Notes: generated from the sequence alone by a model not told the origin. A stretch of 60,732 bases of DNA, filler included, from Hausera hauseri (GCA_046269625.1; 11 parts of 11 records of this genome joined end to end with filler, not necessarily neighbours in it), one strand, 5' to 3'; positions 5,768 to 45,397 are shown, counted from the first letter of the whole stretch. Made by a program: numbers and translations.

Positions 5768-7017
5768 TATCCACGTCGATATCAGTTTCGACAGCTCACC
5801 AGATACAATCAATTTTGCGATCAAAGCACTGGTTTGTAAATGCTAAGACCCACCTGATAAATGCTACGCCCAGTAATCAGTACTACGTAACTCACAGTGA
5901 CTATACCTATAGTCTAAATTATCCGCAAACGCCACAAATGCCTAACAATCTCAAGGGGTACAGCATGGGCAATAGATCGCTTGCCCTGATACAACTAACG
6001 AAGGCGACCTCTTTTCACCTCCAGGATCTAATAATTCTACCAGAATGATTTCACTTAATAAATGTATACAATATAGCCGGCAAACTCCACATCAAGACTA
6101 CGAGTTGTAAAACCTCCATTCAAGGAGATATAATCAATTTGGACCCAGATCATGCGTTAGCATTCGATTATAGCTTTATAAAAAGCCACGCCTTTAAAAT
6201 TCGGTCTCTCTCTAACTCAATCATGATAGCTTTCGAAATTATCAAACGTGAGAATTTCCAAGCGTTAATCCCAGAAGGAAAATGTTTTCATCGTTCTGAA
6301 CTGGACTGCGTCAAATACAAAACTATCCTGTACAGAAGGATACAAAATATCACGAACAAAGATGTGGTCATCGCTGCTGTTAATCTAGCATATGACCAGT
6401 GGAACCAAATGCAGCCGATCGAATGCTCAGTCATAACATTAGACGGCCAGACCCTTTTCTACAGCATTACTTCCCCACGCCAAAGAATCAACAACTTTGA
6501 TACCCATCTTACGGGTTTGGCGAAAGCAAATATAAACAACCAGATGGATGTGAACGACTTTTATCACAAATATCTGAAGTTTGTACGGATAAAGTTATAA
6601 TAGGAGCCGATGTACTCCAGATGGTAATCATGTATTGCAAATGCCCATTCAGGCGGGTAGCCGGAGTTCGCAATATTCTTTATCACGAAGAGGCTATCCG
6701 CAAATACCAATTAACCACCAATACTTATAAGGAGTTGGCTAAAAAGTTCTACGACACTCGTGGAATGCCACTCCCAAGTACAGCCTTGGTACAGTGTTAC
6801 CAGGCCATCTATAAACAATTAAAATAGACCGACGAAATTATCACCCAGTCTTCGGCCTCCGAACAGGTGCGAATAGCACCAATTTCTGGAAGGAAACGCA
6901 AGTTCCAGACGGATGAAACCGTAACAGTCAATGGTGAGATTTACGAGCCAGAGTCGATCAGGTACAAGAGTAAAACTTCAGACAAATTCATACACATCCC
7001 CTTATCGTTGGATTAGT
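5768..7017 (+). pseudogene. DEDDh (REX/ISG20-like) exonuclease-fold accessory protein, divergent copy without RING
   Basis: PNNLKGYSMGNRSL / SFHLQDLI / AFKIRSL align with PNDLKGTTEENRAI / AHSLKELI / FKFRIAAL of 20320-22728. PIECSVITLDGQTLFYSITSPRQRINNFDTHLTGL...KVIIG follows the DEDDh pattern. Stops at 6046 and 6825, frameshift near 6585. Preceded by acceptor-like CATTGACATTTCTCCTTACAG. Confidence 0.65.
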
Positions 7018-7920: not shown

Positions 7921-8410
7921 ACTGAAAGTCGGGCTAGTCTTAGCCTTATAGTGAGTTCTCAAAATAGACAAGTACTAATTAATAGGTTTGTTATCAAAAT
8001 GATCTATTTCTATAAAAATAGTACCGAGGAGGCGATGCGACGCGAATCACAAACTTGGTGGATGTTTTTATTATGTATGGAATTAGTTGGGGTTTAGGAT
8101 TTTAGTGAGTCGTCAAGAAGCGACTTGACAGCCCGTCTTCAGGTAATATCACAATGATAAAACCTGAGAATAAGAAATGTTACTTATTTATGCCGTGAAC
8201 GCAGCCCAATAACAAGAACATACAATTTCCGATACTAAAATTAAATACAATGAGAGTTTGGCAGGTAGTGCTACAAGAGCAGAACCTTTATCACAAAATT
8301 TTATGGCGGATTTTGGTAAGTAATGTCTCGAAGACAAAACCCTTTATTAGATGAAGATATCAACTTTGGAAATACTGAAATTGGTCAGTAATGTCGCTAG
8401 GACAAAACTG
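7921..8410 (+). other. Structured non-coding element with four tandem internal-loop hairpins, copy 1
   Basis: Units at 8139-8167, 8263-8287, 8319-8341 and 8386-8410 of form GT-AR-stem4-N5-stem4-RA-AC. Homologous to 31312-31810 on the minus strand. Confidence 0.65.
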
Positions 8411-10799: not shown

Positions 10800-11254
10800 T
10801 GAATAATATAATAATTACAACACAAAACACGAATCGTCAAGATTTGGAATCACGTTAGAAAATGTCAATTTTTCGTCCACAAGAAATTTTTTTAACTCTT
10901 CAGCAAGCTTTCGTTTCTGCTACTATTCGACGCTACAGTCGAAGTTATTCTGTCCTTTTGTCATTTACTACTATATTTATATACTATATCAACTTGTAGA
11001 CAGCTGCGTATTATCTACATATTTTATTTACATTTTCAGATTACTCTCACATTTCCAACATATGTTTCGATTCTAAATTAACGGATTTTTATGCAACAAC
11101 TGCGGAAACAATAAATTTTCTACTCAGTAAATTTCTAATCTAATATTGGTTTACTTTCACCAATTTCTAATATTACCATAATGTATTTACAATTGGAATA
11201 TTTATTCAACCACTATGGTGCTATTTACAAACCACTACAGTGCTATTCACAACA
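10800..11254 (-). repeat. 3' LTR, partial (distal boundary uncertain)
   Basis: Minus strand reads PPT AGGGAGGAGAAA (11255-11266) then TGTTGTG. TATA-like GTATATAAAT near 10975-10985. Confidence 0.6.
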
Positions 11255-13564
11255 TTTCTCCTCCCTGAGCCACATGCTCGGATGTGCCTATTGCGTTAGG
11301 AGAGGTGACACCATCATTTGGACGTTGTAAGGCATTTAACCTCTCTCGTAAGTCGCTTTGGAAATTTATTCTTCTACTGGTTTGGGGATTTTGCTCCAAG
11401 TAATAAGCAGTAGATGCTTTTATCTCGACTACCCTATTATTTTCGCCACGAGAAAAGTATTTTAACTGGGATGCTTCTGCTCGGCATACTGGGCATGTCG
11501 TTTTTCCATTAATCAGCATCCATTGTTGCAAACAATCTCGACAGTGACGATGTCTACGGTTTTTGTTTGCTAGAATTACATAGCCTTGCCATAAATTGGC
11601 TTCGCATACGGGGCAAAGGTTTCCAGTGTCATTGTCCAGATCGCAATCTGTAACCTAATTTATCTCCTGAAATAATAATCCTTTTGGGTTCTTATACAGA
11701 TATCCATGCAATTGTTTCTGGTCGGTATCAATTGAACTTTTCCGTGGGTCTCCATTAACGGCTATTAGGGTTTACTCAATCACGGGTTGGACGTCTAGGT
11801 CTGGGATTCCCATTTTCTTATACTGTTTCTTTATCTCTATTTTGGTCTGGTTGTCAACTGGTACAGTTATTCTCTTAGTTCCTGTTTTCGACTTAAATAC
11901 TGGAGTTAGATATCTGCCTAACTTGAGGTCAATTTGCGCATAAGCATTTTCATGTAGTTCCAATACTGGCACTGTATGAATGTAAAATACCGCGTCTTTG
12001 ATCTTCCCCCGACTTACATATTCTGCCATTATCATGATGCTAGGGTGTTCTGCCGTGTCCTTACGGGCTTCTGTGGTAATTATTTCTTTGTCTTGTCCCC
12101 TTTTTAGAACATTCACTTCCGTAAGTTTCTCTGGTATATTTTCGGTAGGATGTTTTCTGATCTGTTCAGTTTGGGATGATCTTTTTTCTTTCCTCTTTAG
12201 AAATCCGAATATTGATTTCTTTTTCTTTTCTGGAGATGGGTCTCTCAGTTTGGGCTTTTTGGTTGATGCTCCTTGGTAGCTTTCCTCTCCTTTCTTTGTT
12301 TTTGTAGGTACTTGGAATTCATATGTAATAGTACTTGTTTTATGTTTGGTGGCATCCTTTTTGCTTGATGTTGTAATTTGCATATTATTGTCCCTTTTAG
12401 GTTCGACAATCCGTATTGGTGAATACGGTTGAAATTGTTTTCGGTAGCGGGAATCCAACTCCTTCGGTTTCCTGCTGCTTTGTAAGTTATTTTTGGGATT
12501 TAGTGACGACTATTCATGATCCCATTTGATCGTAGCGTAAACATCACGCAAATATTGGGTTCTTTTGGTAGCTGACAACTGTCGATTGATTCTGTGTTGG
12601 GTTTCGTTCATAATTTCTACAATTGCTTTGAAATGTGCTTCCATGGTCATGAGAACTAGTCGATTTACACTGTCAATCTTCTCCTTGATCTTAGGGTGAG
12701 CCCAAAATTCTCGTATCCCTGCTATATTTTTAGTATTTATTTTCAGTTTGTCTATTTGTTCCTGGACTTAAAATCCTGCGATCATACATCCGTATAAGCA
12801 GTGGTTTAGCTCCATTTCTACAATTTTGATGTCTTTCCCATTTACCAAATCTTCTTTTCTTATGCCTGTTATTTCCGCAAACGTTTCTTTCACTCTTTTC
12901 CGAGGGATAATCAATCTAGAGTAAACTTCTATCCCGTTCATATCTCTAATCAAAACTTCAATGGGAATGGAATTTCCGTCATCCCCTTCTCCTTAATTTG
13001 TTGAAATAATACGGACGTTCCGTCTGTCTTGTACCCGTTTGTATGATCCCAAATATTGATCTATCTCATCTTCTGTCGGATACTGATAGTATATCAGGGG
13101 AGGCAGGGGTATAGTTGGAATTTCCTCACAGGTGATTTCCATAATAAATTTTACAGGTAGGGATGCGATTCTTAACTCCACTTCTTTTGCCAAACTTTCT
13201 CCTTGTATCTTAAAGGTGCTGAACTTATACTGTCGTCCTTTGTTGGAATCCCAGTTTTGTTCAGTCAGTCGATAGTAAATTTCTCCTTCCGTCAAATGTA
13301 TGTATATATCATTGTTATGTCCTAGTTGGAATTTCAATAATTTTCTCAGATTATAAGCTCTGGCGTCTTCATTGTTCCTCATTGCATATAACATCAATAC
13401 TCGATTTTCTTTAACGATCCCACTTTATTATATTCAATCGCTATCTTGTTCTGTAGATCCATGTGGATATGTCTGTAGATGGATTTGGAGCTCGGGGTGA
13501 TTATGATTGCATTCTCTTACAAAAATCCGTCAATGTCCATACAAAAATTGCTGCTGGTCGCCAT
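11247..13564 (-). pseudogene. DEDDh-like pseudo-nuclease / RING finger fusion, disrupted
   Basis: Fragments 12993-13397, 12768-12953, 11772-12458 and 11247-11531 are colinear with the contig 5 protein. RING reads CPVC..RHRHCRDC..CPVC. Several stops and at least one frameshift. Confidence 0.75.
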
Positions 13565-13675
13565 ACTACTCACAAATCTGAAATAAAACAAATAAAGGTT
13601 AATCCTAAGACAGATCCTTGTTTCATTACAAAACAATTTTACTGTCTGATGATAGAATAACCTGACCTGTAGTTG

Positions 13676-14449
13676 TCAGGTTATTTTATCATATAAATCA
13701 CTTTGGTAAACCACCTTTATCCCTCCATCCTTATTTTTGCGCTGTTTTCTACAATTTTTGGTAACTATATAAAATGACGCAATTAATATTAATAAGACGA
13801 ACGCTGACACTCTAATAGTCGATATAATAGATGAAGTTGTTAATGCAATTGGTTTCTGTGTTATCATATATGTAGTAATTATGTTTTCTGTCTTGACTTA
13901 TTTGTAAATCTGGGTAATTACTTTCTGCTAAGGTGCGTAAGGTTATTGTCTTATTTTGCTTTCCTGCTGCATTAATTTGTATTATATATTCTGTCTGAGG
14001 TTTTAATGTGTTACATTCTGCTTGTCGTGTATTCTGTATAAGTTTTACTTTTTGTCTGTCATATAAGGTTCGACAGTTTATTTCTATATCGTAGTTCAGT
14101 CCTTCCTCAACAAAGAACACTATTCTATACTGATGGATCGAATATCTGATAGGTATGTTTTCAAATTTTACTTTACATATATTGTTAGTTGCAATAATTC
14201 GGGCGGCCGACTTTTTAGTCGAGGTTTCCATTGAAATTTTCAAAATTCTATTTTCTGGATAGTAGATTCGTAATTGTATACTTGGTTGATTGGGCCGTAT
14301 CTTGTATAAGTCGAATCTTATTTTGAATTCTTAATTCACGGGTATTTTACAACATGGATGTTGCACACCTGCACGGATGGAACAATATTCCATTTTCGGA
14401 GTTGGTCCTATTACTGCCTCGAATACGATGCTGATTTCCTGATTGACAG
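13676..14449 (-). pseudogene. FN3-like type-I membrane protein, frameshifted
   Basis: NTLKPQTEYIIQINAAG..ITLRT resembles the fibronectin type III LxPxTxY signature. Followed, in a shifted frame, by TM VSAFVLLILIASFYIV and basic tail KNCRKQRKNK. Confidence 0.6.
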
Positions 14450-14760
14450 NNNNNNNNNNNNNNNNNNNNNNNNNNNNNNNNNNNNNNNNNNNNTTAATTA
14501 ATTAANNNNNNNNNNNNNNNNNNNNNNNNNNNNNNNNNNNNNNNNNNNNATAATTTTAATAACGGGAACAATTATTTTAAATCATTTTGAATCAAAATTT
14601 CTTTAATAAAAAGGAATTACCGCAGTTAAAATTTTGGTAGAATTTTTATAATATTGATATCTACATACAGGACAAATTTTATTGAAATCTTAGTCGGATA
14701 TCTCAATAAAGTTTGTTATAATTTATTTGAGTTCGGCACAAAATTTTAGTTGTCAATATT

Positions 14761-15335
14761 AGTAGGTAGAAGTGTCTTCTCCGCCCAAAATCCCAAAAGT
14801 GCTCAGATTGACCTGGGACCAAGTTTTCTCCACCTATCTCACAATTCTGAGCATTTCATGTCTCATCGTCGGAGACCCGCTGGTCGGAAGCAAATGTCAT
14901 ATGTCGCATATGTCACGGACTGAAATATAGTAGAACTCGATGAGGCGACAAATTTTTATAGCGCGGTGGAGAGTCAAAAATTCTACTGGACGACGGTAGA
15001 AGCAAAAGTAGCAAAAGTGAAAATGTTTTACGAGAAACGATACACAAGTTACGAATTGCGCAATGTTTGGTGCAAACGTCAAATCAATGTTGCGAAATCG
15101 AATGCGCACAATTTCAACTTCGTCTGACCGTGAGAACATTGGGAAAATTTATGGGAAAATTTTAAACTCTAAAAATTTCCCATAGTTCAAATCTGCTGGT
15201 TGTGGAAATGGGTTGAGCACGTAGCCCATCAGTAGTTGAGCATTTTATATTATAGCCGCCTCACGATCGGACCAATGGATCCGGGTGAAAAATGCAACCA
15301 ACCGACCGACCGAAAAAACGCATTGTTAAAAAGTC
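14761..15335 (+). repeat. Dispersed non-coding repeat, copy 2 (candidate Polinton terminal region)
   Basis: Colinear homology to 935-1500. Lies on the same contig as a pPolB pseudogene. Confidence 0.75.
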
Positions 15336-17394
15336 AAATTCATCATCATCATTATTGTTGTAAATGCGTTCGTTTTGTAAAAATCGTATATTTTATTTTG
15401 TACAACGACGACGGCGACAAACGTACAAATTACCACGAGCTCATAATTGAGTACTATTACTACTCATAAGGAGAATGATTGTGGTGACGGTGATGGTGGT
15501 GACAGTCTGCCTACAAACTAATGAGTACCACCAAATGTGAAGCTAAAATTATTGAAAATATCATATTATTTCTCATGATTTTTTAGCTCTTTAGTCTGAA
15601 GTTCAATCCTGAAATATTGGACATTTGAAGTCGAGACTGTGTTGATTTTTGGAGGCACTGTTTTTTAAATCAGCAATGTGTGTCAATAAATTATGATCAT
15701 TACACATACTAACATATAAAATACCATGGCACTTAGTTTATCGTCATTTCGAAAATTTGCGACAACCGAAGATGTATCATCCAGTGAACGTTCGTTTTTT
15801 TTCTTTTAATAATTTTTTATATTACTATTTTATTATTAATTTTAATATTTTATTAATTTTGCTTTTCATTATTAATTTTTCTAAATGACCTAGTTTTGGA
15901 CATCTGCACAATCGTACTCACCGCACTGAGTTCAGTCGGAAAAGTTTTGGACTAACCCAGTTTGGGACACCGGCATTTCCCCACCTATCTAACTATAAAA
16001 GATCATTTTAATTTTTCGTCAACCTAGTTTTTGGTCGGACCACACCTGTCTGGCTATAACAATCAGGTATGCTGCCAAGTCAAGTCTGAATCGAACATTT
16101 ATTTCCCTGTGTTTTGTACGACAACAACAAGAACAATTACATTTTTTAGTGAATTAGGAGCACACAAACCACATGGGTTAAGCAATTCCGTAGGAGAATG
16201 AACGAGTCCATCGGAATTAGTTACATTGCAATGTTGCTTGAAACAAATCCGATCTGATGACTGCCACGTTGGAATGTAATCACCTTTGACAAAATCTTCC
16301 ACAAACCGTATTTGACATGGATTGCCATCCAACGCATAGTAATCCGCCAATTTCCGATAGGTGCGAAACAACTGACTGAATATTATATCCATGTCTCCAA
16401 CAACCTGCTTCATATGTCGTGGATAAGATTTTCGTGCTCTCCAATTTTCCTCAGCTCGCCGGAGTATCTCTTTTGGAGAGCAGTATCGTGATCATGTAAA
16501 GGTCGATCAAGATTGTAAAGGTGACTTCGGCGGCTATCGAACGAATGATATAATCGAATGAGTTCTGTTAAATAGGACATGTCGTAATGTCATACTGTAA
16601 AGAAGCGCATGTATTTATACTGAAATGTAACAACAAAGACACGTAAAATATATTATATTGATTCACGAAAACAAACATAGCAAAATAATACATATTTGTG
16701 ATTAAATACGGTCAATCAACTTTTTCATTACTATAAAAAGCTAAGCAGTAAATACAGGTCCAATGAGGAAATTAATATGTCGTTGTCGTTTTCGTCTCAT
16801 TTCATCCTCGATACGTTTTGCGAAGAGAAATCTGACCAGTAATTCAATATACTCTTGCCTGCTGATTATTCTCGTTTCTGTGAGCTCACATGAAACCGTA
16901 CATCAAACACACGTCCTGTCAAAATGTCATAGGTCAATCTCTGAATCACACTTTCAGTATACTCTTCCATTTGATTTAGAGTAGTAGTAGTAATGTTGAT
17001 AAACGTTTATAGCCGATTTAGGCGACATTTTTATTTGATTTAGTTTAACATTTACTTTAATTTGTATATCATTCAAAAATGTTCGCAATATCCCATGTAT
17101 TGCGTGTCCCACATACAAGAGGATGGACAATGCCACAAAGAAATGGCCAAATGTTATGCAGTGACCGAGGACACGTACCTGTGTCCCGTGTGTTTTATTC
17201 AAAACACATGCCCGTACGCCGATTTTTGTGAGATGCACAAGCATCACCTAGGTTCGTTCACGCAGTCCAAGAAGATGATGCATGGGCATTGCCCCACATA
17301 CCCACGTTAGTGTACTTGTAAGGTGCATGACGTTGATTGTTGCTATAGTGGAGCAGTACTATGGTACAACAACAACAGCAAACACAATATTGCA

Positions 17395-19002
17395 TGCAGC
17401 AAAGGCATATTTCTATATGACTTTGCAACATCATATGAGCGAATTCGGAGAGCAGAGAAATTACCGCCGCGATGGACAGGTATCGCAGAAGATAAATATC
17501 AAAGAGTACAAGAATCTTGGACAGAACCGGGCTGTAAAAACACGTTGGATTACATGCACCAGTATCTTAAACCGGACCTGTACTTATTAGCCGAGGTGTT
17601 CGAAGCATTTCGGACCAAAGCGCTGGCGGAAGATAGGTTGGAGCCACTCAACTTTTATTCCATACCGGGAATGAGTTGGGTGTTAATTCTAGTGTCACTG
17701 GATCGAGACATTGAGCTGTTGCAAGACCCGGAAATGCACCGGCTGTTTGATGTTGGTATTTGCGGCGGCATGATATTTGTCAACAAGCATCAGGCCAGTG
17801 CTACCGATACCACATCACTGATGTATATTGATATTAATAACCTGTAGGGCTGGGCGCTTTTGCAACCCTTGCCGTAAGGTTAATTTGAATGGGTAGTCGA
17901 CAGACAAGATCTGAACGACATAATGGTCAACCTACCACGAGCAGACACGGCAGTCTCAGTTGGAGGTCGATCTTAAAATACCAGATGAGCTGCATGACGT
18001 TTTGGACGATTTACCGGTCGCACAATTTAACCAATCTCCGCCAGGCTCAAAAGTGAAGAAACTGCTCATGACACATGAACCCAAGCTGAATTACGTGGTC
18101 CATTGGCGTCTGCTACAGTTCTACATTCAGCTCGGTGTACGCGTCACAAAGCTGCATCGTGCAATCCGATTTGCTCAGGTTCTCATATTCAAGGCGTACA
18201 TAGATGGAAATGCGGTGAAACGAGCCGCAGCTTGTACAAAATTTGAAAAGGACTATTACAAGCTGAAAAACAAATCCCTGTACGAAAACAGTGGAAAATC
18301 TGAAAAAGCGGCTCAATGCGTGCCTAAGTAACTCGGAATAGCGGATAGTTACGTATACCAACAAGGCACAGTTTCGGCGGTCAATGCACATCGCCGGTGG
18401 ATTGGTTGCCATGCTTTTAAACAGTAAAGAAGTCTTACTGGACCGGCCAAGTTATACAGGACAAGTGATATTGGATCTGAGCAAGTTGCGGATGGATGAG
18501 CTGCAGTATCGCGATTTGGCATGTTACGGGTAAATGTTCGGCAGCGGATGCAAGATCAATTTAATTTCCGGTGACACAGATAGTATTTTCTTGGAACTGG
18601 AAAACGTCAGTCGCGAACAACTACTGCGGCAAATGATAGCAGACGGATTACTGGACATGTTTAATTACCCACATAATCATCCATTGTATAGCAACGCCAT
18701 CACAAACAAAATCGGCTGCTTCAAGGATGAAAGTGAAGGTAGTGTCCGGTATCGGAAATGGATACTCCTACGCTTAAAGTGCTACAGTCTTCTGACGGAC
18801 TGTGGACCGAAAGTGTGGACAAAAGGAGTCTAGCTGAGACAGACGGGAATCGGCCACGGTGATTATCGACGCATATATGAAGCAGCAGCAGCAGCAAAAG
18901 GAGGACAATCAGAGAGTGTTGTGTCTCAAACGATCATCCGATCAATTGAGCACCAGCTGTATACAATAACTAGTGCGAAAGTCACTTTGTCATATAACGA
19001 AA
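17395..19002 (+). pseudogene. Protein-primed family B DNA polymerase of a Polinton/Maverick
   Basis: KGIFLYD..LPP, YLKPDLYLLAEVFEAFR, motif A YIDINNL*GWAL, motif B KLKNKSLY, motif C SGDTDS, IGCFKDE, LRLKCYS, KGV. Multiple stops and frameshifts. Confidence 0.92.
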
Positions 19003-19102: not shown

Positions 19103-19404
19103 TTTAACCCGTCTGGGTCTCCGTCGTATGCCGGTAAATTCAAAGAATCAAACGTAAATATATCCAGTTTCTGTGCCAAAACTAGGTTATCCACTGCCAT
19201 TTTAACCTTGTTTGGTTTGTCTACTTTAATTTTAGGAACTTTAAATTCTTTGCCAGAGGGTAATTCAATATCAGATAAACAGTGTTTATCTATTACCTTA
19301 TCTTTGGTATAAAGTTTATTACGTGTTTCTCTTTGATTGAGTTTCTCCTTGTCGTTTACTAATAAGTTTTGATTTGAATTGAACCTATCAATGTTTGCTC
19401 TCAA
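19103..19404 (-). CDS. gag: Probable gag N-terminus (truncated by contig end)
   Basis: Open frame downstream of the PBS containing LPAYDGDPDGL, like the LPxFDGxP start of Gypsy capsid domains. ATG candidate at 19200 (MAVDNLV). Confidence 0.55.
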
Positions 19405-19554
19405 TTTAATTTACTTAGTCCCTTCTAACCACTTATAAACCAAATTTAGATTCTCTTAACTCTTATTGCATAACGATTATTTGGTGTAATTGGCGCTATT
19501 CGCCATTATGTCTTTAATTGACTCTCAAAAGTAATGTCTAGAGAGGTAAAAGCT

Positions 19555-19572
19555 GTCCTGCTAGGGTCGCCA
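19555..19572 (-). promoter_or_regulatory. Primer-binding site, tRNA-Arg-like
   Basis: TGGCGACCCTAGCAGGAC, 18 nt, 2 nt after the LTR-terminal CA. Complementary to a tRNA 3' end GUCCUGCUAGGGUCGCCA resembling animal tRNA-Arg. Confidence 0.8.
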
Positions 19573-19574
19573 AA

Positions 19575-20324
19575 TGTTACAGTTGGGGTGCCCCTTACCG
19601 TCTCCCACTATAACAATATTTATTAAAAGTTTAGTTTCTCGTGAGCCGGTTAGGACTATTCGTTCTCGAATAGTCGAATGTACCTTATATTTTAAGACGT
19701 TAGGTAAATTATTCACAACTGCTGGTACTGCTTGATAAAACACTGCGTGCTTTAGTTAATAAATTCTAGTCCTACTTATGGAGTTTAAGTAAAATTTTAA
19801 CCTTAGGGTAGTATAAATCGTATGGAAGAGACGATGGAAAAACTATATAGAAAGTTGAAAATAATAAACTTAAAATAACCTTTATTCAGTGAACCCGGTA
19901 ACAACTTCAATATAGAAAAACACAGCTTCGATTGGATTAGTCAATAACAATAAAGTCTTTTAGAGTTTCTTGAATCAACTCTAAAGTCGTCCGACAACTA
20001 ATTTCGAAATTCTAACTTCTCATTCTCGTCTCTAATGGGGCTGTTTATATAGTTGAAATCAGGAATTCCATTACTAATTTTTCTAAATTTATTTACATTA
20101 CTAATCTAATTTTCATGGTTTTTATCCATTTTCTAAATTTATTTGCATTACTAATATACATTCCGACTATTCATATGTCAATTAAATTCTGTGTCAGTCT
20201 TCGTATATCTGGAAATCATTCGCTGAATGCAATTATATCTGATTACAAATTTTCTAAATATATTTCAATTACAAATTTTGTGTTTGAACTATACATTCCT
20301 TATGTTTATGTCGACTCTGCTACA
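19575..20324 (-). repeat. Complete 750-bp LTR
   Basis: Starts TGTAGCAG directly after PPT AGGGAGAAGAAA (20325-20336) and ends CTGTAACA before the PBS. Contains TATATAAA (about 20043-20050) and a downstream AATAAA (19881-19886). Confidence 0.88.
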
Positions 20325-22728
20325 TTTCTTCTCCCTGAGCGGCATCCTCGAAGGAGCCTATTGCGTCAAAAGAGGTGGCGCCCAATGTTCTAGGATGTCT
20401 CAAGAGGACTAGTCTTTGTCTCAAATCACTCTCAGAATCCGTTCTATTTTGATTATGCGCAGGGTTTGTTTCTAGATTATAACTAAGATGGGGTTTAATA
20501 CGTATCACTCGAGTGTAACTTCCATCCGCATAATATTTCAGGTCCGTGGCCTCCGCCCGACATACTGGACACGTTGTTTTTCCATTTTCGAGTGTTTATT
20601 TCTCTAAACAATCTCGGCAGTATTTGTGGCGGCAGATTTTATTATCTAATACTACATATCCTTGTTTTAGGTTACCGTCACATACAGGACATTCGTTGTC
20701 TTCTTTGTCTTAATCATCTCTATCCAAGTCTACCTGGATTGTGAATTCAATCGGTTCAAATACAAGACCGTCCTTGTCTTGATATAGATATCCATGGATC
20801 ACTTTTTGTTGAGGGTTAATTGAACTTTTCCTTGGATCTCAATCCACTTGTATTAATGTCCAGTCCGCCAAGTAGTCTCGATCTATATCTGGAACTTTTC
20901 CTTCTACACGATACTTTTGATATTGTTTTTTCAACAGTATACGGATTTGCTTGTCCACTGGGACTATTATTTTTCCTGTCCTCTTTGAACGGAAAATTGA
21001 GGTAAGGTGGTTTCCTAACTTTGGGTTTTCCCAGACATACGTATTTTCAAAAACCTCCCTGGCTGGGACAATTTTAATATAGAACATCGCCTCTTTAATC
21101 GTTTTCTTGCTACAATACTCAGTGGTTATCAGCATCCTTTGGTAATTTTGAGTTGTTTTGTGGTGGATATTTTCTTCAGTCCTTTTCTGTAGCAAAACAT
21201 TGATCTCAGTTATCATCGATTTCGTTTTCTTTACAGGATTATGCTTTTGGGAGATATTTGGTTCAATTCGTTGGTGTTCTCTCTTTTGTTTCTCCTCTTT
21301 TCTTTTCTTGAATAGATAGTTATAAATAGATGGCTTTTTCTTTATTTGTTGCTCGTCTTCCAATTTTTGTCTTTTCACTTTTGTTTCTGATTTTAATTCT
21401 TCTTTGCGCCCTTCTAAGAATTTTGGTGTTTTACTAGGTATTTTATCTTCCTTTCCAATTTCTGGGACTTGTGTTTTGTTTTCTTCCTGCTGTTGTATAG
21501 TGATCATAAGACTACGCTCATTCATTTGTAAAACAGCTTTGATCGGGGAGTAAGATTTAATATTCCGTCTATATCTGATATCTATTTGTTCGGGTTTTAG
21601 GGAACTATGTAAATTATCTGTGGGGTTTCTCGGGGCCCATTCATGTTCCGACTTTAACAACTTGTAGATTTCTTGTAAATATTTGGAACGCTGACTAGCC
21701 GTCAAGAGTCTTGGAATTTTGTTTGAGTCCTTTTTCATTGCTTCAATCATTAGTTTAAAGAAGGCTTCTGGGGCGGTTGGTCGATTTCTCCCTTGTACGG
21801 TCCTCTCCATTCGTTCTTGAACTATTGGGTGGGTGTCTATTTCCCTAAGTCCGGCAATATTCGCATCGGATATTCCTAATAGCTCGATTTCTCGTTTTAC
21901 ATTGTATCCCGTTATCATACACCCGTAGATGCAATGGTCTAACTCAGAACGGACCTGTTGAATATCTTTCCCGCTTATAAGTTGTTCTTTTCTTAAACCG
22001 GTTACTTCCGCGTATGATTCTTGAACGTGTTTTCGGGGATTTATAATAGTGGAGTAAAGCTCCGTTTTATCCCTTTCTCTAATAGATACTTCGATAGGTA
22101 CCCCATAACCATCGTCTCCTCTGCCACAACTTATTGCCATAATTCTTATGTTGCGGCTATCTTTAACTAATCTATATGACTGACGGTGTTTGTTTTTTTC
22201 TACTTCGATTGGAATTTGTTCAAATTCTAGAACTGGCAAGCCGAAGTTGCAGTTCTCTCTATAGGTTACTTCAAACATATGTTTAACAGGCAGGGCTGCA
22301 ATTCTGAATTTAAAGCCGTAGTCAATGTGTTCTAACCTTTTTTTACTTATTCTAAATGTACTAAAGCGATATTGGCGCCCTTCGTCAGATTTCCATGTTT
22401 GACTTTCTATTTTATAATATAGTTCGTTGTCGGCTAAACGTATGTATATATCCTGAATTTTCACTGGTCGATATCTGATTAATTCCTTTAAAGAATGTGC
22501 TTTTGCTTGGTTACCTTCACGCATCGTGTAGAGGTAAATCGCACGGTTTTCTTCTGTGGTGCCCTTCAAGTCATTTGGTATTTCGTTTACATTCCGATAT
22601 TCGACGTACATTTCTGTTCGTAGTACGTCATTTATCCTTCTGTATATAGCTTTTGATTTGGGAATAAAGACTGTAGCGTATCCTTGTAGGAATTCGTCGA
22701 CTCTAATTCGGCTGATCATACTTACCAT
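20320..22728 (-). pseudogene. About 800-aa protein: novel N-terminal domain + DEDDh-like domain + basic linker + C3HC4 RING
   Basis: The 629-aa ORF continues in frame through three stops into CPVC..CRHKYCRDC..CPVC and ends AQGEEM* over the PPT (2409 nt, one frame). DEDDh-like core IEVSIRERDKTELYSTIINPRKHVQESYAEVTGL..DIQQVRSEL..MITGYN. Confidence 0.78.
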
Positions 22729-22762
22729 TCTGAAAGAAAATACAAAATAAGGGTCAGTCCTA
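22720..22762 (-). promoter_or_regulatory. Splice acceptor (branch point, pyrimidine tract, CAG) followed 4 nt later by a donor consensus
   Basis: ACTGAC CCTTATTTTGTATTTTCTTTCAG|AATG|GTAAGT. The homologous site in contig 3 (13568-13605) reads ATTAAC CTTTATTTGTTTTATTTCAG|ATTT|GTGAGT. Confidence 0.65.
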
Positions 22763-22830
22763 AAACAAAGTATTGTTCTGAATCTGAACCAATTCTTTGT
22801 CTGATGGTGGAATAACCCGATCTGTAGTTG

Positions 22831-24200
22831 TCAGATTATTCCATCATTGATTTCGTTCTGTGGTACCATCACCCTTAATTCCCTCTCGGTGATTTTATGA
22901 CGCTTACTACAACAGTTTTTGGTGACCAATTGGCAAAACGCCATAAGAATTAAAGAGCAAATATTGATGTCTCAATAATTAATATTACTGAGAGTTATCC
23001 CCTTAGTTAGTTTTTCAGTTTTAACGGTAGTTGTAATTTCGCCTTCCACTTCCTCATTAGTTAGCAATTTCATTAATACAATCTCGTTTAACGTTCGTAC
23101 CGTAAAGGTTTTACTTCGTCTACTCTCTGCACTTATTTGTATTACGTAGTTGGTTTTTGGTTTCAATTAGGTACATTTGATTCGATGACTGTCTTTAACT
23201 AATGTTACTTTCTGATTATTATGCACTGTTCAAAAGCTTATTTCTACGTCGTAATTAAGTGCTTCTTCCACAACGAACGTCATTTCATATTGCTGTGTCC
23301 AATATTTTATAGGAATTGCTTCTAGCTCCTTTTAAGGTAATCCAGTCGTTTGTAGGAATTTTGTGGAAGTTGAAGTAGGTTTATTCATTTTCGAAGTCGT
23401 AATTCTTCTGGTTGTTGTTTCAAGTGGAATTCCTCAAATCGGATTTTTCAATTGGTAACTTCCTAAGAATATACTTGACTGGTTCGGCCGAACTTCATAT
23501 AGGGCCAGTCAAATTCTATATTTATATCCCTGAGATAACTTACAACATATGTTCGGCCTTCCGGCGTCGATCTGACAATACTGTTGGTTATAAGCTGTTT
23601 TGTCCACTCTCAGGAATTCAACCGTAATTACTCGTCCTTTAATCAACCGTCCTTTTGTGTTTATTTGGATACAATTATCTTTTAGGTTTTCCATTATACT
23701 CGCTATATTTTCGTCTAATATCCGTTTTAATGGGTCAGTGGATTTAAACATGTCTTCCAGTTCTATATTTAGATAATATCCATAAGTTTGTGGTATAACT
23801 AATTGTGAATTCAAATTTATTTCGGATTGTACTTCATTACAGTTCGGTAAATATGCACGATAGCTGAGAGCGTAAGAATGTCCTTACTCTACGTTGCAAC
23901 AAGTTGTATCGTCCTCTGGCTCGAATTTACAATCAGACTAGGTTTGGCTTAATAAGTCACGGAATAGTATCCGGATTTGCCCCTCATGTAATCCTGGTAA
24001 CCTAAACCCGACACATGGGGCTTCTGGCGAAAAATAATCTAATTTTATTGTTCGTAAAAATTTTTCGTCCTTTTGTTCTGGTTTATGCTCGGGAGTTCCC
24101 TCCTTTTGTGGCGGCGGTTTTAATCCGACTTTCCTGATTCCATATATATCGCTCAACGAATTTTCATCTACCCACCATTGGGCGTTAGACTTAGGCGTTA
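22831..24200 (-). pseudogene. Post-integrase ORF ending in FN3-like domain and TM helix, disrupted
   Basis: Fragments 23938-24156 and 23509-23814 are in one frame across stops. LKPKTNYVIQISAES..FTVRT (FN3-like), then ISIFALLILMAFCQLVTKNCC. Homologous to 13676-14449. Confidence 0.6.
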
Positions 24201-24213
24201 GGGCAGCAATTAA

Positions 24214-25182
24214 TTATAAGGCTACGATTATCTGTGCGTAAGATGTCGGTCTTGTGGTGANNNNNNNNNNATGTTTGGCCGGTTTTATATTTGTTTTAAC
24301 CACTTTTTGGATTGATACGACTTCTTTACCATTTTTATTAACATGGACTGTTGTTGGCGTTGTACGGACGATTACATACGGTCTTCTTCCGGTGCGTGTT
24401 AATTTCAAGGACGTGACTTTCTTCGCGACTGGGTAACGTATATAAACCCAATTTCTTTTTTTCAAATCATGAGGTTTAATCTTTTTATCATATTGTTTTT
24501 TAAATTGTTCCTGATACTCGAGCGATAATGTCTTCGCAACCTCCCAGCACTTTTGTAATCTTGTCTGTAAAACTTCTGCGAAGTTTTGTTCTAGAGCCTC
24601 GAGGTTCGTTTCATATAGTGTCATACCTAGATCCGTGGGTAAGATTGCTTCTCGTCCGTACATAATAAAGAACGGTGTAAACCCCGTTGCTGGATGTGGG
24701 GTCGTATTGATTGCAAACTGTGTCCCTTCTAGGAATTCATCCCAATCCTTTTGGTCTTTTGTCACTACGGTTGATAATATTCGAATAACTGTTGAGTTCA
24801 TCCGCTCGACCATTCCATTACATTGGGGGTGGTACGCGGTAGTGGTTAAACGTTCGATTTCGAATATCTTGGTAATTTTTTCGCATAATTCGCTTGTGAA
24901 ATTCCTTCCTCTGTCCGTTAAAATTTGTTCTGGTGGTCCATATCTGCAGATAATTTTCCTTACCACTGCATCGGCAAGTATTTCTGCCTTTTGATCTAAT
25001 AGTGCCACCAGTTCGACGACGTGAGTTAGTCCATCCACGCATGTTAGGATGTATCTGTTATTTTTGTGAGTTTTCGGCAGGGGTCCTACTATATCCATAG
25101 ACATAGCTTGCATGGGTCTATCCGGTACGTTTATAGGTTTTAGTTCTGCTACGTAGCCTTTCGTTTTCTTCTGTTTTGTCGC
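24214..25182 (-). CDS. pol: Gypsy integrase (catalytic core and C-terminus; 5' truncated)
   Basis: MDIVGPLP, TDRGRNF, TTAYHPQCNGMVER (D,D35E), TGFTPFFIMYGRE, GPY-like RPY. Confidence 0.95.
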   Translation of the reverse strand, partial: ATKQKKTKGYVAELKPINVPDRPMQAMSMDIVGPLPKTHKNNRYILTCVDGLTHVVELVALLDQKAEILADAVVRKIICRYGPPEQILTDRGRNFTSELCEKITKIFEIERLTTTAYHPQCNGMVERMNSTVIRILSTVVTKDQKDWDEFLEGTQFAINTTPHPATGFTPFFIMYGREAILPTDLGMTLYETNLEALEQNFAEVLQTRLQKCWEVAKTLSLEYQEQFKKQYDKKIKPHDLKKRNWVYIRYPVAKKVTSLKLTRTGRRPYVIVRTTPTTVHVNKNGKEVVSIQKVVKTNIKPAKHXXXXTTRPTSYAQIIVAL

Positions 25183-31311: not shown

Positions 31312-31810
31312 AAGGTTTTGTCTTATTGGCATTACCTGCCAATATTCGAAATAAACTTTCACAATAAAGGTTTTGTCCTAGTGGCATTACCTGCCTATAT
31401 TTGAAATAAAATTTTACGAGAAAGGTTCTGCTCTTGTAGCACTACCTGCCAAATTTTCATCCTCAATTTGATTTATAGTATCGAAGTTAACTAGCCCCCA
31501 CTGTCAATTTACGTTTAAAAATTTGAATAAATAAAATTCTTGGAACTCAGGCTTTATCCTTGTGATACTACCTGAAGACGGGTTGTCAAGTCGATTCTTG
31601 ACGACTCACTAAAATCATTGACCCCAAGTAACATATTGAATAACAGAAACGAGAGATATACTTTGTGTTTCGCACCCGTATTGCCGCCCCGATTTTAGTG
31701 ATACACAGATAAATCGATTCTCGATTACAATCTCGCTGATTCTTATATACGAAATAGTAATTCTGATATTGAACTCACTATAACGCTAAGACTAGCCCGA
31801 CCTTTCAACT
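31312..31810 (-). other. Structured non-coding element with four tandem hairpins, copy 2
   Basis: Reverse complement shares AAAGGTCGGGCTAGTCTTAGCGTTATAGTGAGTTC, TTTTAGTGAGTCGTCAAGAATCGACTTGACAACCCGTCTTCAGGT and TTGGCAGGTAGTGCTACAAGAGCAGAACCTTT with 7921-8410. Confidence 0.7.
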
Positions 31811-36495: not shown

Positions 36496-37220
36496 NNNNN
36501 NNNNNNNNNNNNNNNNNNNNNNNNNNNNNNNNNNNNNNNTTAATTAATTAANNNNNNNNNNNNNNNNNNNNNNNNNNNNNNNNNNNNNNNNNNNNCCAGG
36601 CCGCCGCCACACCCGGGGCACAACATTACCTCCTCCCTCGTGGATGAAATGAAAACTATAAAAGCAAGATAGAAGTGAAATGAAAGGCACCAAGAAAAAA
36701 TGTTTATTTTCGTCACGCTTAGTACGGACAAGATGTTGAATACCTTCTAATAATTTTCCCTACTGTATGTGCTGAATGTTATTTGCTTGTTTTGTTTGTG
36801 TGCGTTGTGTTAGGTTGCAGAGAGGTATATAGCGGGGTAAGATTTTCCAGATCTTTGGATTTAGTGTTTGACGTTGTGTCTGTCGAAGAGAATGAAGATT
36901 ATGAAGGAAAATAAGTCAAAGACAAAGTGGAGGAAGGTAAAGTAGGTTTGAAAGATTGAAGGTCTGAGGAAGATTGAGGAAAGGCATGACGAGAGCTGTC
37001 ATTGTGAAATGAAGAAGAATTAGAACATTGTGCGTTTGACGAAGGTTGAGATAAAGTATCAGGACGGGATTGAAGGCTTAGTGAAGGCTGAGACGAAAAG
37101 TCAAAGAGAGGTTTGTTGTGAGGTGGATTAGAAGGCTTGGTAAAAACATCAAGAAAGGAATTGCTGCAAGGCGAAACAGAATAATCAGGGTTGTCATCGA
37201 TAAAGAATGCTGGTTTGATG

Positions 37221-41850: not shown

Positions 41851-42485
41851 CTTACGAAGAAAACAAATGGAAAAGCGACGTGGAGAGACATGTCGGTTAC
41901 TATAATCGAAAACGGAAGAGAAAATCTATATTTTTTATAAGCCAAAGAAGCACAAAATCTCGGAAAAACAATTCAGATGATGACGAGCCTAAGGGAGGAA
42001 ACGCAGTCTCTAAGATGAGCAATCGTAAGGCGCTTAGGCCGCCTTTACCAATGCTTCCCCCTTCGGCGCCGCAATACGAAGACAGCGACAAGAGATCTAT
42101 TAACTCTTACAGCTCAGACATCTACCGGAAACCCTTCAATTATGAAGATCCCTATGAAGGGACAAAACAATACGGCGTGTTACGGAAAATGTACCGAACC
42201 AGAGAAAAATCCGAATTATGTCGCCAACCGGCAGATGATCGCAAGATAATATATTCTCCAAGGATTTCACGGAATATAGAAACTAAGTCATTAATTTGGG
42301 ATAGTCCACGAATGCAATCTTTCCAAGAACCACTAATCAATACGCCAGATCGAGACAATGAAAACAATGTAACTAATGGATTGTATCCCATTGAAGAGCT
42401 AAGACAAGTAGCCGAGAATAAAGCACCAGAAATTAGTATAAATGGATATAAGATATCCGTCGTTAAACAATCTAAGATAAAAGAA

Positions 42486-43916
42486 GGTAGACCCTTCGCC
42501 AAAATCAGTATTGAGGATTGGGAGGTTTACGCACTAGTAGATACCGGATCAGAAAGATCATTTATAAAGGACAGATCGATACCAAAAACGTTGCGAAATC
42601 AATTGCGACCACCACTTGCAACTGATCCCGGAAGTATAGGAGCTTTCGGACAAGAATCAAGGCCAAAATTCAAATGGAACCCTAACCTAAAAATAATGGG
42701 ACAGAAGTTCCAGCATGAATTCTCTATAATGGAACATTTAACGGACGACGTAGTAATCGGGTGTGATATATTAAGACGTCTGACAAACGTCGCAATAGAT
42801 CTAAATACCTCGAAGTTAATCGAACTCGGACCGATAAAAGGGACTAAAGTCAATAAAGAAAGAGAATCCGGAGAAGTATGGATTCCGGTCGACGAAAACA
42901 TTCCGCCTAGAACGGAATTGTTAATATTTGCACAAATCTGTCAAGACGATGACATACCAGTATATTTCGAACCAAAAGAAACGCTAAACCCGAGTGTAAT
43001 ATTAAGCAATATATTAACCCGAGTAGCATCCGGTCGAATACCTGTAAGAATAGTGAATAATGCTCAAACTCCAGTAAAATTATATGCCAATACTACTCTA
43101 GGACATACTTACAAAGCATCAGCCATAACAGTCGAAGAGAAGCCGTACAAATACGCAGAATTTCCACCGCACGTCGACACAAAGTTTTCGCCAGAAGCTT
43201 ATTGCCAATTTTACGAATTATTATGTCGATATAAATCAATTATTGCAAAAGACGAAGAAGACATAGGCCGAGCAAAGGCATTGAAACTAACGATACCACT
43301 TAAGAAAAAGCCTGAATCCAATGATGAAATTGATCTCGAGGAACAGAAAATGCCAAAATGGTATCCGCCACCGCATTCCCTAAGACCGGAAATAACCAAG
43401 GAAGTAGAACGTATGTTAAAGGCCAATGTAATTCGACCCAGTTTCAGATCATGGTATTCACCTATTCTAATGGTTAAAAAGAAAGGAACTACGAAACATC
43501 GATTTTGTATCGATTATAGAGCATTGAATACACTCATGTTGAAGGACTCTTTCCCTCTACCATCCGTAAAAGAAGCGTTAGATAGACTCTCGGGTGCAAA
43601 ATGGTTCACTACGCTGGACTTACAATCAGGATATTGGCAGGTCGAGATCGAAGATGAGGATCGTTATAAGACCGCGTTTAAGACGCATGACGGCGTATAC
43701 GAATTCAACGTTATGCCATTTGGAATTACCACTGGACCAGCCATATTTACCAGGATGATGAACAAGATGTTAATGGGACTTGAACATGCATTTGCGTACT
43801 TAGATGACGTAATGATTGCATCCAAAGACGAAAAAGAGCATTTAAAGGATATTGAGGACACTCTAATGAGATTAGAACAAGCTGGGTTGAAACTAAACCC
43901 GAAGAAATGTAAATGA
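42486..43916 (+). CDS. pol: Aspartic protease, dUTPase-like spacer domain and reverse transcriptase
   Basis: ALVDTGS (42531), VVIGCDIL; IPPRTE..IPVRIVN..KLYANTTLG; RFCIDYRALN, LDLQSGYWQ, MPFG, YLDD (43797). Confidence 0.95.
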   Translation, partial: GRPFAKISIEDWEVYALVDTGSERSFIKDRSIPKTLRNQLRPPLATDPGSIGAFGQESRPKFKWNPNLKIMGQKFQHEFSIMEHLTDDVVIGCDILRRLTNVAIDLNTSKLIELGPIKGTKVNKERESGEVWIPVDENIPPRTELLIFAQICQDDDIPVYFEPKETLNPSVILSNILTRVASGRIPVRIVNNAQTPVKLYANTTLGHTYKASAITVEEKPYKYAEFPPHVDTKFSPEAYCQFYELLCRYKSIIAKDEEDIGRAKALKLTIPLKKKPESNDEIDLEEQKMPKWYPPPHSLRPEITKEVERMLKANVIRPSFRSWYSPILMVKKKGTTKHRFCIDYRALNTLMLKDSFPLPSVKEALDRLSGAKWFTTLDLQSGYWQVEIEDEDRYKTAFKTHDGVYEFNVMPFGITTGPAIFTRMMNKMLMGLEHAFAYLDDVMIASKDEKEHLKDIEDTLMRLEQAGLKLNPKKCK

Positions 43917-45397
43917 GCTCAAAACGCCGTATCCTACCTTGGTCATATAGTTGGCGAAGGAGGATCAAAACCAGATAAATCATTACTGAACAAAATTTCT
44001 GACTGCATGGAACCGCAGAACCAAAAAGAACTAAGACATTGGTTAGGTCTATGCGGATATTATGCGACCTATGTGCCAGATAACTCAAAAATCAACGCAC
44101 CATTATACCGATTGTTAAAAAAGGGAATAAAATGGAAATGGACCGACGTTGAACAAAAGGCATTCGATGAAATGAAGAAAATATTAACTAGCGAACCAGT
44201 ACTGAGATACCCCGATTTTAACTTACCATTTATTATTAAAACCGACGCAAGCAAAGAAGGTATCGGATATGAACTAGCACAAAAGCGCGAAGACGAAGAA
44301 TTAGAACACCCAATTGCTTATGGAGGACGCTCCCTAAAGAAAGCAGAGAAAAATTACTCAGTGACAGAACTAGAAACTCTAGCAGTAAAAGAAGCACTGA
44401 GACATTTCAACGTATATGTATATGGACAAAGGATAATAATAGTTACCGACCATAAGGCAGTGACAACTCTAAAAGGACGAGCAAATAATCCTACATGTAG
44501 ATTAAATCGGTGGATCGAAGAAATATCAAGATACAATATAGAATTCCAATATAAACCTGGTGCAAAACACGTGGATGCAGATGCATTGTCCAGGTTGAAG
44601 ACAAAGGCAAGTGCCATCATGACAATGAGGAAAAATCAACTTGAAGAACTGATTGATAGACAACGAACTTTAGCATCGGACGGAGCAATCAGAATTTCGA
44701 ATGAACAAAGGACGGACCGAGTTATTCAACAAATCATTGAATATGCCGAAACGGACGTGATGCCGAAGGGACACCAGTTAAAGAAACATTTACAACGATA
44801 TGGACACAAATATTGTGTATCTGAGGACAAAGACAATGAAAAAGTGCTGTACTACCAGCGAAAAGGAAGAAAATTGGTAGTTATACCCAAAATTCTACGA
44901 ACTGAAGTTCTAATGGCCGAACACGATTCGTATCTAGCTGGTCATATGTACTGGAAGAAGACGTTAGAAAGGGCAATGAACAAATATTATTGGCCTAGTA
45001 TATACATTGATGTGAAAAATTGGGTAAGCGCCTGCGAAGTATGTGCAACGAAGCAAAGGAAAATGCGAAATTACATAGCAGAGTTGAAACCGATAGCTGT
45101 ACCGGACAGGCCGATGCAAGCCATGACGATGGACATAGTAGGACCACTGCCCACGACGCACAAAAATAACAAATATATATTAACATGCGTCGATCGTTTA
45201 ACTCACTTCGTAGAGTTAATAGCGTTATATGATCAGAAAGCAAACATTAGCTGAAGCCGTAGTAAGGAAGATTATTTGTAGATACGGACCACCCGATCAG
45301 ATACTAACCGATCGAGGAAGGAATTTCACTAGCGAACTATTCGATAAAATTACGAAAATATTCGAGATCGAGAGATTAACTACAACAGCTTACCATC
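43917..45397 (+). CDS. pol: RT connection, RNase H and integrase (same frame, after the premature stop)
   Basis: YLGHIV, TDAS, YSVTELE, TDHK, ADALSR, HHCC (EHDSYLAGH..CEVC), MDIVGPLP, TDRGRNF. Confidence 0.93.

Follow-up and report, generated by a model that had tools for sequence, protein, structure and literature searches.

Two accessory genes behind the integrase of a decayed Ty3/Gypsy retroelement of Hausera hauseri and their putative link to a chuvirus-like glycoprotein

What is encoded in the long open stretch behind the integrase of a Ty3/Gypsy element of Hausera hauseri (GCA_046269625.1), and does it belong to an element that also encodes a viral-type fusion glycoprotein? The question is raised by a window of 60,732 nucleotides in which 11 contigs are joined by linkers of the form N44-12 nt-N44; the element under study is contig 5, at positions 19103-25182. 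A first-pass annotation, made from the sequence alone, had proposed a composite in which a half with a chuvirus-like glycoprotein (G) and a half with accessory genes form a single element. We identified contig 5 as the decayed 3' end of a high-copy Ty3/Gypsy long terminal repeat (LTR) element with two selected accessory genes behind the integrase, here called ORF-A and ORF-B (ORF, open reading frame). The overall explanation that we prefer, in which this is the 3' end of an enveloped Gypsy element whose two accessory genes act by the mechanism proposed below, has in our estimate a probability of roughly 55%.

Read on the minus strand, contig 5 runs from the integrase across a scaffold gap into the accessory coding DNA, and from there through a polypurine tract (PPT), an LTR and a tRNA primer-binding site (PBS) to a putative gag start.

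25182-24271, minus: integrase core and C-terminal part, truncated at the end of the contig (PF00665, E 3.4e-13)
24261..24270, no strand: 10-N scaffold gap at the integrase/cassette boundary, which leaves an in-frame integrase-ORF-A fusion unreadable
22831..24260, minus: ORF-A, broken by in-frame stops, with a signal-peptide-like start, beta-sandwich ectodomain, hydrophobic segment and short tail
about 23256-23092, minus: weak FN3-like module in ORF-A (Pfam fn3, E 0.032)
about 22977-22906, minus: hydrophobic segment in ORF-A (hydropathy 1.4-1.5; 2.3 in contig 3)
22720..22757, minus: predicted splice acceptor for ORF-B (CAG at 22732-22730), built from a branch-point-like motif and a pyrimidine tract, then CAG and, 4 nt further on, a donor-like GTRAGT
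20320..22728, minus: ORF-B, with three in-frame stops; predicted oxygenase-fold domain, pseudo-DEDDh, linker, unassigned third domain and RING
22260..22701 (approximate), minus: 2-oxoglutarate (2OG)-Fe(II)-oxygenase-like double-stranded beta-helix domain (residues 60-205 of the model of the homolog P0011)
21634..22146 (approximate), minus: DEDDh (ISG20/REX4-like) fold without catalytic residues (P0011 model and alignment)
20557..20697, minus: C3HC4 RING finger (PF13639, E 1.1e-6, above the curated cut-off)
20336-20325, minus: PPT of 12 nt, overlapping the last ORF-B codons
20324-19575, minus: LTR of 750 bp, TGTAG...GTAACA, with a 6/8 terminal inverted repeat and TG...CA ends after the PPT
19555..19572, minus: PBS, Arg-like but non-unique (sequence comparison)
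19103..19506, minus: putative gag start, broken and truncated at the end of the contig (called from position and one short motif; ATG at 19506)

The accessory DNA (24260-20322, 3,939 nt) has 13 stops in one frame, compared with 107 and 115 in the other two, and the earlier estimate of about 3.9 kb of extra coding sequence between the integrase and the PPT and LTR is confirmed. A non-standard genetic code was ruled out as the source of the stops, since all three stop codons occur and homologs are open at those places. The PPT in front, the TG...CA ends and the tRNA PBS behind are those of a Ty3/Gypsy LTR, of which a single copy is visible. The same PPT is found in contig 3 and the same C-terminus in P0011; because the PPT overlaps the final ORF-B codons, the C-terminus is conserved among contig 5, contig 3 and P0011. 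The integrase-to-ORF-A neighbourhood is seen in one independent public contig, in which 23691 is joined to 24321 and the shorter side measures 72 nt. This contig (run X1, depth 135.6) omits 629 nt (23691-24321), corresponding to the front of ORF-A, and suggests that an amplified variant without that front exists.

The larger gene product, ORF-B, is predicted to consist of two pseudo-enzymes, a third domain and a C3HC4 RING, the last a candidate for E3 ubiquitin ligase activity. An exhaustive HMMER search with ORF-B gave 8 matches. P0011 is an unbroken homolog with the RING (870 aa, 38-39% identity, 829 residues in one frame), and P0012 is a partial homolog (40%); their source DNA records measure 16.2 kb and 12.4 kb. 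Because P0011 is open across all three stops of ORF-B in contig 5 (20841, 20712 and 20598), we read these as decay. The folds were judged on an AlphaFold model of P0011 with a mean predicted local distance difference test score (pLDDT) of 49.5, in which the nuclease domain reaches about 70-89 and the oxygenase region 58-78; the third domain lies below 50 and shows no fold. The nuclease domain superposes on human ISG20 with Z 20.0 and a root-mean-square deviation (rmsd) of 2.0 over 158 aligned residues (Foldseek E 4e-8). Residues 60-205 match the viral prolyl hydroxylase 5c5t (Z 9.4, rmsd 3.5, 133 aligned), ALKBH1 (Z 9.2) and, by Foldseek, a cupin (E 8e-4). Five members of the 2OG-oxygenase family give Z 9.1-9.4 with rmsd 3.5-6.3 over 133-145 aligned residues, a moderate agreement. 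A fold search of BFVD returned generic DEDDh and RING rows only.

Read by eye, the alignment shows no conserved active site for either fold among the close rows. The ExoI D-x-E is gone in all five close rows (contigs 5, 3 and 2, P0011 and P0012), the ExoIII H-x4-D in all three close rows that reach that region, and the ExoII D likewise from the fold in contig 5; no HxD/E...H metal triad is common to the close rows. Because the catalytic residues are missing, 'DEDDh' here denotes a pseudo-nuclease. The ExoI and ExoIII motifs are kept in five of five distant two-domain homologs (P0013-P0016 and P0019, also by eye). In P0013-P0016 (23-28%) both the N-terminal domain and the nuclease domain are matched; in P0017 and P0018 it is the nuclease part alone, and named cellular exonucleases match weakly (E 4.5e-4). 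The DEDDh/RING protein of the first-pass annotation stands in its fold and its RING finger but is devoid of catalytic residues, and that reading overlooked the oxygenase-fold domain and the splice acceptor.

More distant relatives of ORF-B occur on short metagenome contigs. Loci L001-L009 carry genes that combine the oxygenase fold with an active-site-intact DEDDh domain. In L008 an ORF with a signal peptide, ectodomain and transmembrane (TM) segment lies upstream of the active-site-intact gene, and in both L008 and L009 small coiled-coil ORFs lie immediately upstream. L010 (GC content 0.63, E 7e-5, 35 residues) was dropped as a chance match. A word-based homolog search with ORF-B yielded none among 1,125 candidates, and a scan of JGI metagenomes with the close ORF-B alignment confirmed 0 of 261 pattern matches.

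The arrangement between ORF-A and ORF-B in contig 5 is repeated in contig 3, where the acceptor again lies between the ORF-A stop and the ORF-B start (CAG at 13580-13578). Contigs 5 and 3 each contain the combined acceptor-plus-donor motif once; it also turns up in 8 and 5 of 2,000 shuffles, counts that are optimistic because the motif was defined after being seen. The ORF-A/ORF-B junction just upstream of the motif contains the most conserved of 66 DNA windows of 100 nt (0.71, compared with a median of 0.56). At the place of the acceptor, P0011 and P0012 carry an F/L-rich sequence and a V-S pair, which would fit the translation of such a splice signal. We consider it probable that ORF-B is expressed by splicing at the predicted acceptor. 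The GTRAGT that follows 4 nt past the acceptor in both copies (22720-22732 and 13568-13580, both minus) may mark a micro-exon or a recursive splice point. Micro-exons and recursive splicing of this kind are reminiscent of the multiply spliced mRNAs of retroviruses.

ORF-A is modelled as a beta-sandwich type I membrane protein, possibly of FN3 type. Its stop at 22833 is read as the natural end of the gene because it occupies the same place in contig 3. The Pfam FN3 scores of ORF-A (E 0.032 and 0.17) are under the cut-off, and the FN3 atlas score of 0.92, with 165 shared features, is flagged as weak. The model of the ectodomain is all-beta, and its top Foldseek match is fibronectin FN3-6 at E 0.2. 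The membrane protein part of the FN3/TM protein described earlier is retained, but support for FN3, though consistent across the sequence and fold scores, is weak.

Two other contigs of the window hold copies of the cassette.

11251..14449, minus: contig 3, sister cassette copy running from mid-ORF-A as far as the PPT (11266-11255); stops and frameshifts interrupt it near the ORF-A/ORF-B junction
5869..6558, plus: contig 2, distant ORF-B fragment made up of the oxygenase-fold domain plus the first half of the pseudo-DEDDh (tblastn against P0011, E 4e-10; profile iE 2.4e-11)

Contigs 3 and 5 are collinear, with 37% identity across 1,107 aligned residues. The contig 5 LTR and the DNA behind the contig 3 PPT share only words at chance level. 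No FN3, RING or PPT was found in contig 2. Between contigs 5 and 3, six accessory segments have amino-acid identities of 37-56%, with proportions of differing nonsynonymous sites (pN) of 0.28-0.43 and of differing silent sites (pS) of 0.74-0.84. For the DEDDh fold, which lacks its catalytic residues in both copies, pN is 0.33 against a pS of 0.80; for the RING and tail, the values are 0.28 and 0.84. Identity by codon position in ORF-B is 0.58, 0.68 and 0.41. The silent sites are saturated, so no numeric ratio of nonsynonymous to silent rates (dN/dS) can be given. Judged from these comparisons, purifying selection on the accessory genes, the dead nuclease included, is clear. The first-pass annotation, which had suggested a substitution analysis of these ORFs, saw three subfamilies retaining the module, with diverged versions in contigs 3 and 2. 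Its case for selection is borne out by pN values well below pS and contig 3 is indeed a collinear copy with the same PPT, but the count reduces to two near-complete copies and one fragment, contig 2 holding only the first half of ORF-B.

The glycoprotein is seen in contig 9 and not in the visible part of contig 5.

40812..41876, plus: fusion glycoprotein of Monjiviricetes type (chuvirus-like, gB-type), C-terminal half (PF24664, E 1e-39, covering profile positions 265-605 of 653)
42483..45397, plus: protease, reverse transcriptase (RT), in-frame stop, RNase H and frameshifted integrase, cut by the contig end (Pfam, translation)

The order protease, RT, RNase H, integrase (PR-RT-RH-IN) is that of Ty3/Gypsy pol. 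G is in frame with the protease and RT and is 34% identical to the G of a database protein, P0001. Contig 9 lacks the N-terminal half of G, and the gag-G junction and the region upstream lie outside the window. The cytoplasmic stretch of contig 9 between the membrane anchor of G and the protease contains a PSAP motif at about 42100-42135 (plus), which we take to be late-domain-like.

The integrases of contigs 5 and 9 differ at 22 of 122 residues (82% identical), with a pS of 0.80-0.82 and a DNA identity of 76%. They form a clade at 100/100 among 35 rows, and the best of 32 database proteins is about 50% identical over the same stretch. A search of longer proteins with the integrase gave 31 matches, all at 43% identity or less and none with PF24664. 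Because the silent sites are saturated and DNA identity is 76%, the two contigs are best described, from their sequences, as separate sister families; the sister kinship proposed earlier, from about 13 differences in 95 residues, is upheld, but the rank of subfamily is not. For the RT-RNase H region of contig 9, the best of 27 proteins is P0001 (48.6%), its sister at 90/90.

P0001 is a single ORF of 4,057 aa that encodes Gag, a ubiquitin-like domain, G, ankyrins, PR-RT-RH-IN and a signal-ectodomain-TM tail; its cluster has 5 near-identical members (source DNA records 12.6-15.1 kb). G and a membrane protein behind the integrase thus coexist in one natural element. A profile of the ectodomains of contigs 5 and 3 scores 5.2 bits against the P0001 tail, a score reached by 1 of 1,000 shuffles. 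By eye, P0001 also has a degenerate protease-like stretch between G and the ankyrins and a helical stretch before G. The latter presumably holds a Bcl-2 BH1-like motif, a label that we assign by eye. Two runs supply divergent contigs that cover 30 of 30 bins of contig 5 and likewise of contig 9, with 8,103 and 12,316 matching contigs, respectively, in X1 and 603 and 1,136 in X2.

We think it quite probable that G and the 3' cassette are linked in one element. It is likely that contig 5 belongs to an enveloped clade of the Burro type (gag-env-pol), with the G half seen in the sister family of contig 9. Of the composite proposed at the outset, the parts and the kinship of contigs 5 and 9 hold, but the two halves were not met on one molecule. 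The observed parts sum to an estimated 12-13 kb or more when the missing half of G and gag are allowed for, well below the 25-30 kb of Burro; the earlier figure was well over 10 kb.

Several observations weigh against this explanation. The IMG/VR, JGI metagenome, longer-protein and word-based searches turned up no contig, read or protein that combines G with ORF-B; among the matching pieces listed from the two runs, the longest is under 600 nt, too short to bridge G to ORF-B. Run X1 and the source sample may be related, and copy number cannot be read from contig depth. The 5' half of contig 5 itself is outside view, the silent sites separating it from contig 9 are saturated, and one lineage may have lost env. 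Contig 9 forms a long branch in the RT tree, and the integrase tree does not firmly group P0001 with contigs 5 and 9. The P0001 ORF contains no DEDDh and no RING domain, and its tail matches ORF-A weakly, within one FN3-type strand motif (25 and 5 of 300 shuffles in pairwise comparisons; hhalign probability 1.7%). The ectodomain is poorly modelled (pLDDT 53), and in VIA this model matches MATH/TRAF-type sandwiches best (Z 5.8 for a MATH domain), FN3 reaching Z 4.4. The ectodomain of L008 resembles ORF-A weakly (184 of 1,000 shuffles; hhalign probability 0.4%). None of the 10 loci with ORF-B relatives (1.1-5.7 kb) carries pol, so the active-site-intact relatives are at most candidate retroelement genes. 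Five of five IMG/VR scans, made with ORF-B, the integrase, G-PR-RT, a G alignment and the distant-homolog alignment, returned no relative. The longer-protein search with G retained 2 of 1,413 candidates; P0002 from this search, a mosquito protein with PF05380 and PF03564, was not used further.

In the mechanism that we propose, genomic RNA would be translated into a Gag-G-PR-RT-RH-IN polyprotein, and G would serve as a class III fusogen in enveloped entry. ORF-A would be a type I surface protein, either freed by signal peptidase or expressed on its own, and would help particles or producer cells to bind their target cells. ORF-B would be translated from a spliced subgenomic mRNA via the conserved acceptor, and the dead folds of its product would be RNA- or protein-binding modules through which the RING E3 ligase reaches a host target. 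That target, most likely a silencing or restriction factor, would then be ubiquitinated. Silencing factors are a reasonable candidate because Maelstrom and EXD1, piRNA factors that are inactive DEDD derivatives, retain RNA binding, as described in the available text of PMC5408684. This role of ORF-B, as an E3 adaptor in counter-defence, is put forward tentatively on the basis of its domains. A bolder and rather unlikely extension is that an invertebrate Ty3/Gypsy lineage independently built a full complex-retrovirus programme, in which a class III fusogen and a second attachment protein are joined by a spliced mRNA for an E3 ligase, and a pair of exapted, dead RNA enzymes (oxygenase fold and ISG20-like nuclease fold) serves as its substrate receptors, imitating or capturing the small-RNA silencing factors of the host for degradation. 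If this were true, the degradation of silencing factors would explain the very high copy number.

With G and the cassette linked, ORF-B might instead serve the RNA or particles of the element itself, through packaging, export, 3'-end protection or ubiquitin-driven release. Both dead folds stem from nucleic-acid-binding enzyme families, and the presumed late-domain-like PSAP in the G tail of contig 9 would suit such a role. On the other hand, a RING fused to binding modules is, we assume, more often a substrate adaptor, and the extra domains of Burro have been tied, as a proposal in the available text of PMC6431247, to host apoptosis and ubiquitination. We regard this role as doubtful in itself, yet nearly as likely as action on a host target. 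Somewhat less probable is the placement of G and the cassette in different lineages of one clade, the contig 5 family being without G, by loss or from the outset, and dependent on ORF-A and ORF-B, and the contig 9 family lacking the full cassette. Such a division would account for the saturated silent sites, for the failure to find a molecule that joins both halves and for a P0001 ORF that has G and a membrane tail but no ORF-B domain, and the contig that omits 629 nt between the integrase and ORF-A means that regional variants exist. It fits poorly with the presence of G in both of the nearest relatives whose 5' half is visible, contig 9 and P0001, and with the finding that env mostly stayed with pol (PMC13524379, as far as its available text goes).

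The condition of the DNA suggests two further readings. Both window copies are broken, with 13 stops in contig 5, and LTR elements are known to capture genes, so the cassette could be host DNA that was picked up passively and does nothing for the element. This reading is largely refuted and the least probable of those considered: pN is far under pS in six of six accessory segments, the PPT is written into the last ORF-B codons of contigs 5 and 3, P0011 is unbroken, and the best matches, all unnamed proteins, share the two-domain layout, while cellular exonucleases with names match the DEDDh part only. Contig 5 could also be a collapsed-repeat assembly path that mixes copies or families. The scaffold gap between the integrase and ORF-A, the LTR with a primer site and a gag-like start right behind it, and the thousands of divergent copies in run X1 would all agree with this. 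However, contig 3 independently repeats the order ORF-A, acceptor, ORF-B and PPT, and the independent contig joins the integrase end to ORF-A. For the contig as a whole we consider a collapsed repeat improbable, and it is left as a reading for the LTR-to-gag join only. The preferred explanation, a decayed enveloped element with a selected 3' cassette, is the one compared with known systems below.

Among the closest published elements are planarian ones. Burro, a giant gypsy-like element also treated with GYPSM1, has a mononegavirus-like env in frame between gag and pol, a high copy number and accessory domains tied to ubiquitination, and thus resembles the elements studied here in placing a fusion glycoprotein before pol (PMC6431247, available text). 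Ubiquitin-like and ankyrin domains of the Burro type are also present in P0001, the closest relative by RT that the searches gave. The Burro polyprotein is further characterized by SUMO-like, BCL2-like, BIR and MATH cargo domains. Unlike P0001, contig 9 has about 110 residues between G and the protease, compared with about 490 including ankyrins, and no ankyrin match was found in that region of contig 9. The account of Burro, as far as its available text goes, names no FN3/TM, DEDDh, oxygenase-fold or 3' RING gene (PMC6431247).

A second account, PMC13524379, describes in its available parts GAG-ENV-POL 'ancient errantiviruses' with an ENV of HSV/gB type in Platyhelminthes, Bryozoa and Nematoda. 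These likewise have G before pol and a chuvirus-like glycoprotein, an order that is present in contig 9 and lies outside the visible part of contig 5. By eye, the start of the contig 9 G resembles the end of the Schmidtea C1a rows given there, a likeness that hints at a flatworm host. The main text of that account contains 0 mentions of exonuclease, RING, fibronectin or accessory. Its survey sought LTRs up to 3 kb beyond pol, and eight of nine flatworm rows have no LTR or PBS call; because of the 3-kb limit, an LTR lying 3.9 kb behind the integrase would presumably be missed.

Individual parts of the cassette have counterparts elsewhere. The bdelloid elements Juno and Vesta resemble contig 5 in carrying a DnaQ-fold exonuclease-type gene 3' of pol in an LTR element, and TM-protein genes are found 3' of pol in other bdelloid families (PMC5408684, available text). 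Their ORF3, however, is DEDDy with intact residues and without a RING (0 mentions), whereas the domain described here is an ISG20-like DEDDh, dead and fused to an oxygenase fold and a RING. The comparison with Burro and the bdelloid elements, which the first-pass annotation had proposed, places the shared core layout with Burro. An orchid Ty3/Gypsy element with an AlkB m6A demethylase ORF shares the 2OG-oxygenase-fold accessory domain (PMC9289625). The orchid ORF is functional according to the title of that paper; the domain in ORF-B has no conserved metal triad and is fused to the pseudo-nuclease and RING.

Complex retroviruses have spliced accessory genes that recruit ubiquitin ligases. The element described here would resemble them in logic only, combining an entry protein with a spliced 3' accessory gene of predicted E3 role; its polymerase is Ty3/Gypsy-like, and no sequence kinship is claimed. 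The earlier analogy to complex retroviruses is narrowed by the fact that G between gag and pol together with accessory domains is already published for Burro and the GAG-ENV-POL elements. An env in frame between gag and pol is known, and the core of the composite is largely published. What is added here is the co-occurrence of both accessory genes, the RING, the splice signal, the PPT overlap and the position of this family next to one that bears G. In the full-text literature searched, which leaves aside the 2018 planarian genome paper, Repbase, figures and part of the PMC13524379 supplements, we found no description of the 3' cassette.

The 3' ends of enveloped env-before-pol Gypsy elements have hardly been examined. 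A selected cassette that joins a second surface protein to a pseudo-enzyme/RING fusion offers candidates for target-cell choice and counter-silencing by animal retrotransposons. With its unbroken reading frame, P0011 opens ORF-B to direct tests of RNA binding and ubiquitin-ligase activity, and the series of homologs from active to dead is a case of pseudo-enzyme evolution inside mobile DNA.

Behind the LTR of contig 5, the annotation is less specific. The PBS called Arg earlier is plausibly Arg-like but not uniquely so, with 2 mismatches in 12 nt to both the Arg(CCG) and the Asn(GUU) rows of the table in PMC13524379 (available part), and no tRNA gene is present in the window. The gag assignment agrees with position and one motif, but the 134 codons to the contig end include no Pfam match in the last 102 and no significant match to the P0001 Gag. 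The order LTR, PBS, gag means either a tandem copy or an assembly path through the repeat.

The window also contains other mobile DNA. Contig 8 (36596-40755, minus) is a decayed Gypsy element with protease, RT and RNase H, as well as an integrase, about 27% identical to P0001, without G and unrelated. Contigs 4 (14550-19002) and 10 (45498-50804) have decayed coding pieces in common (tblastx E 8e-23) with no Pfam match, which we take to resemble the protein-primed DNA polymerase of a Polinton-type element. Contig 10 further encodes a 250-aa signal-peptide/TM ORF (45617-46369) and a DUF6387 ORF (48249-48767). Contig 11 (50905-60732) is a DNA-transposon cluster unrelated to the contig 5 element, with THAP (51971-52627), a DDE_Tnp_4 transposase (53696-54472), YqaJ (56286-57239) and inverted repeats nearby. 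A tandem repeat of roughly 60-bp units occupies 27116-27660 in contig 6. Dispersed repeats are shared by contigs 1 and 4 (1093-1471 and 14915-15293, 68%) and by contigs 2 and 7 (7923-8348 and 31363-31807, 71%).

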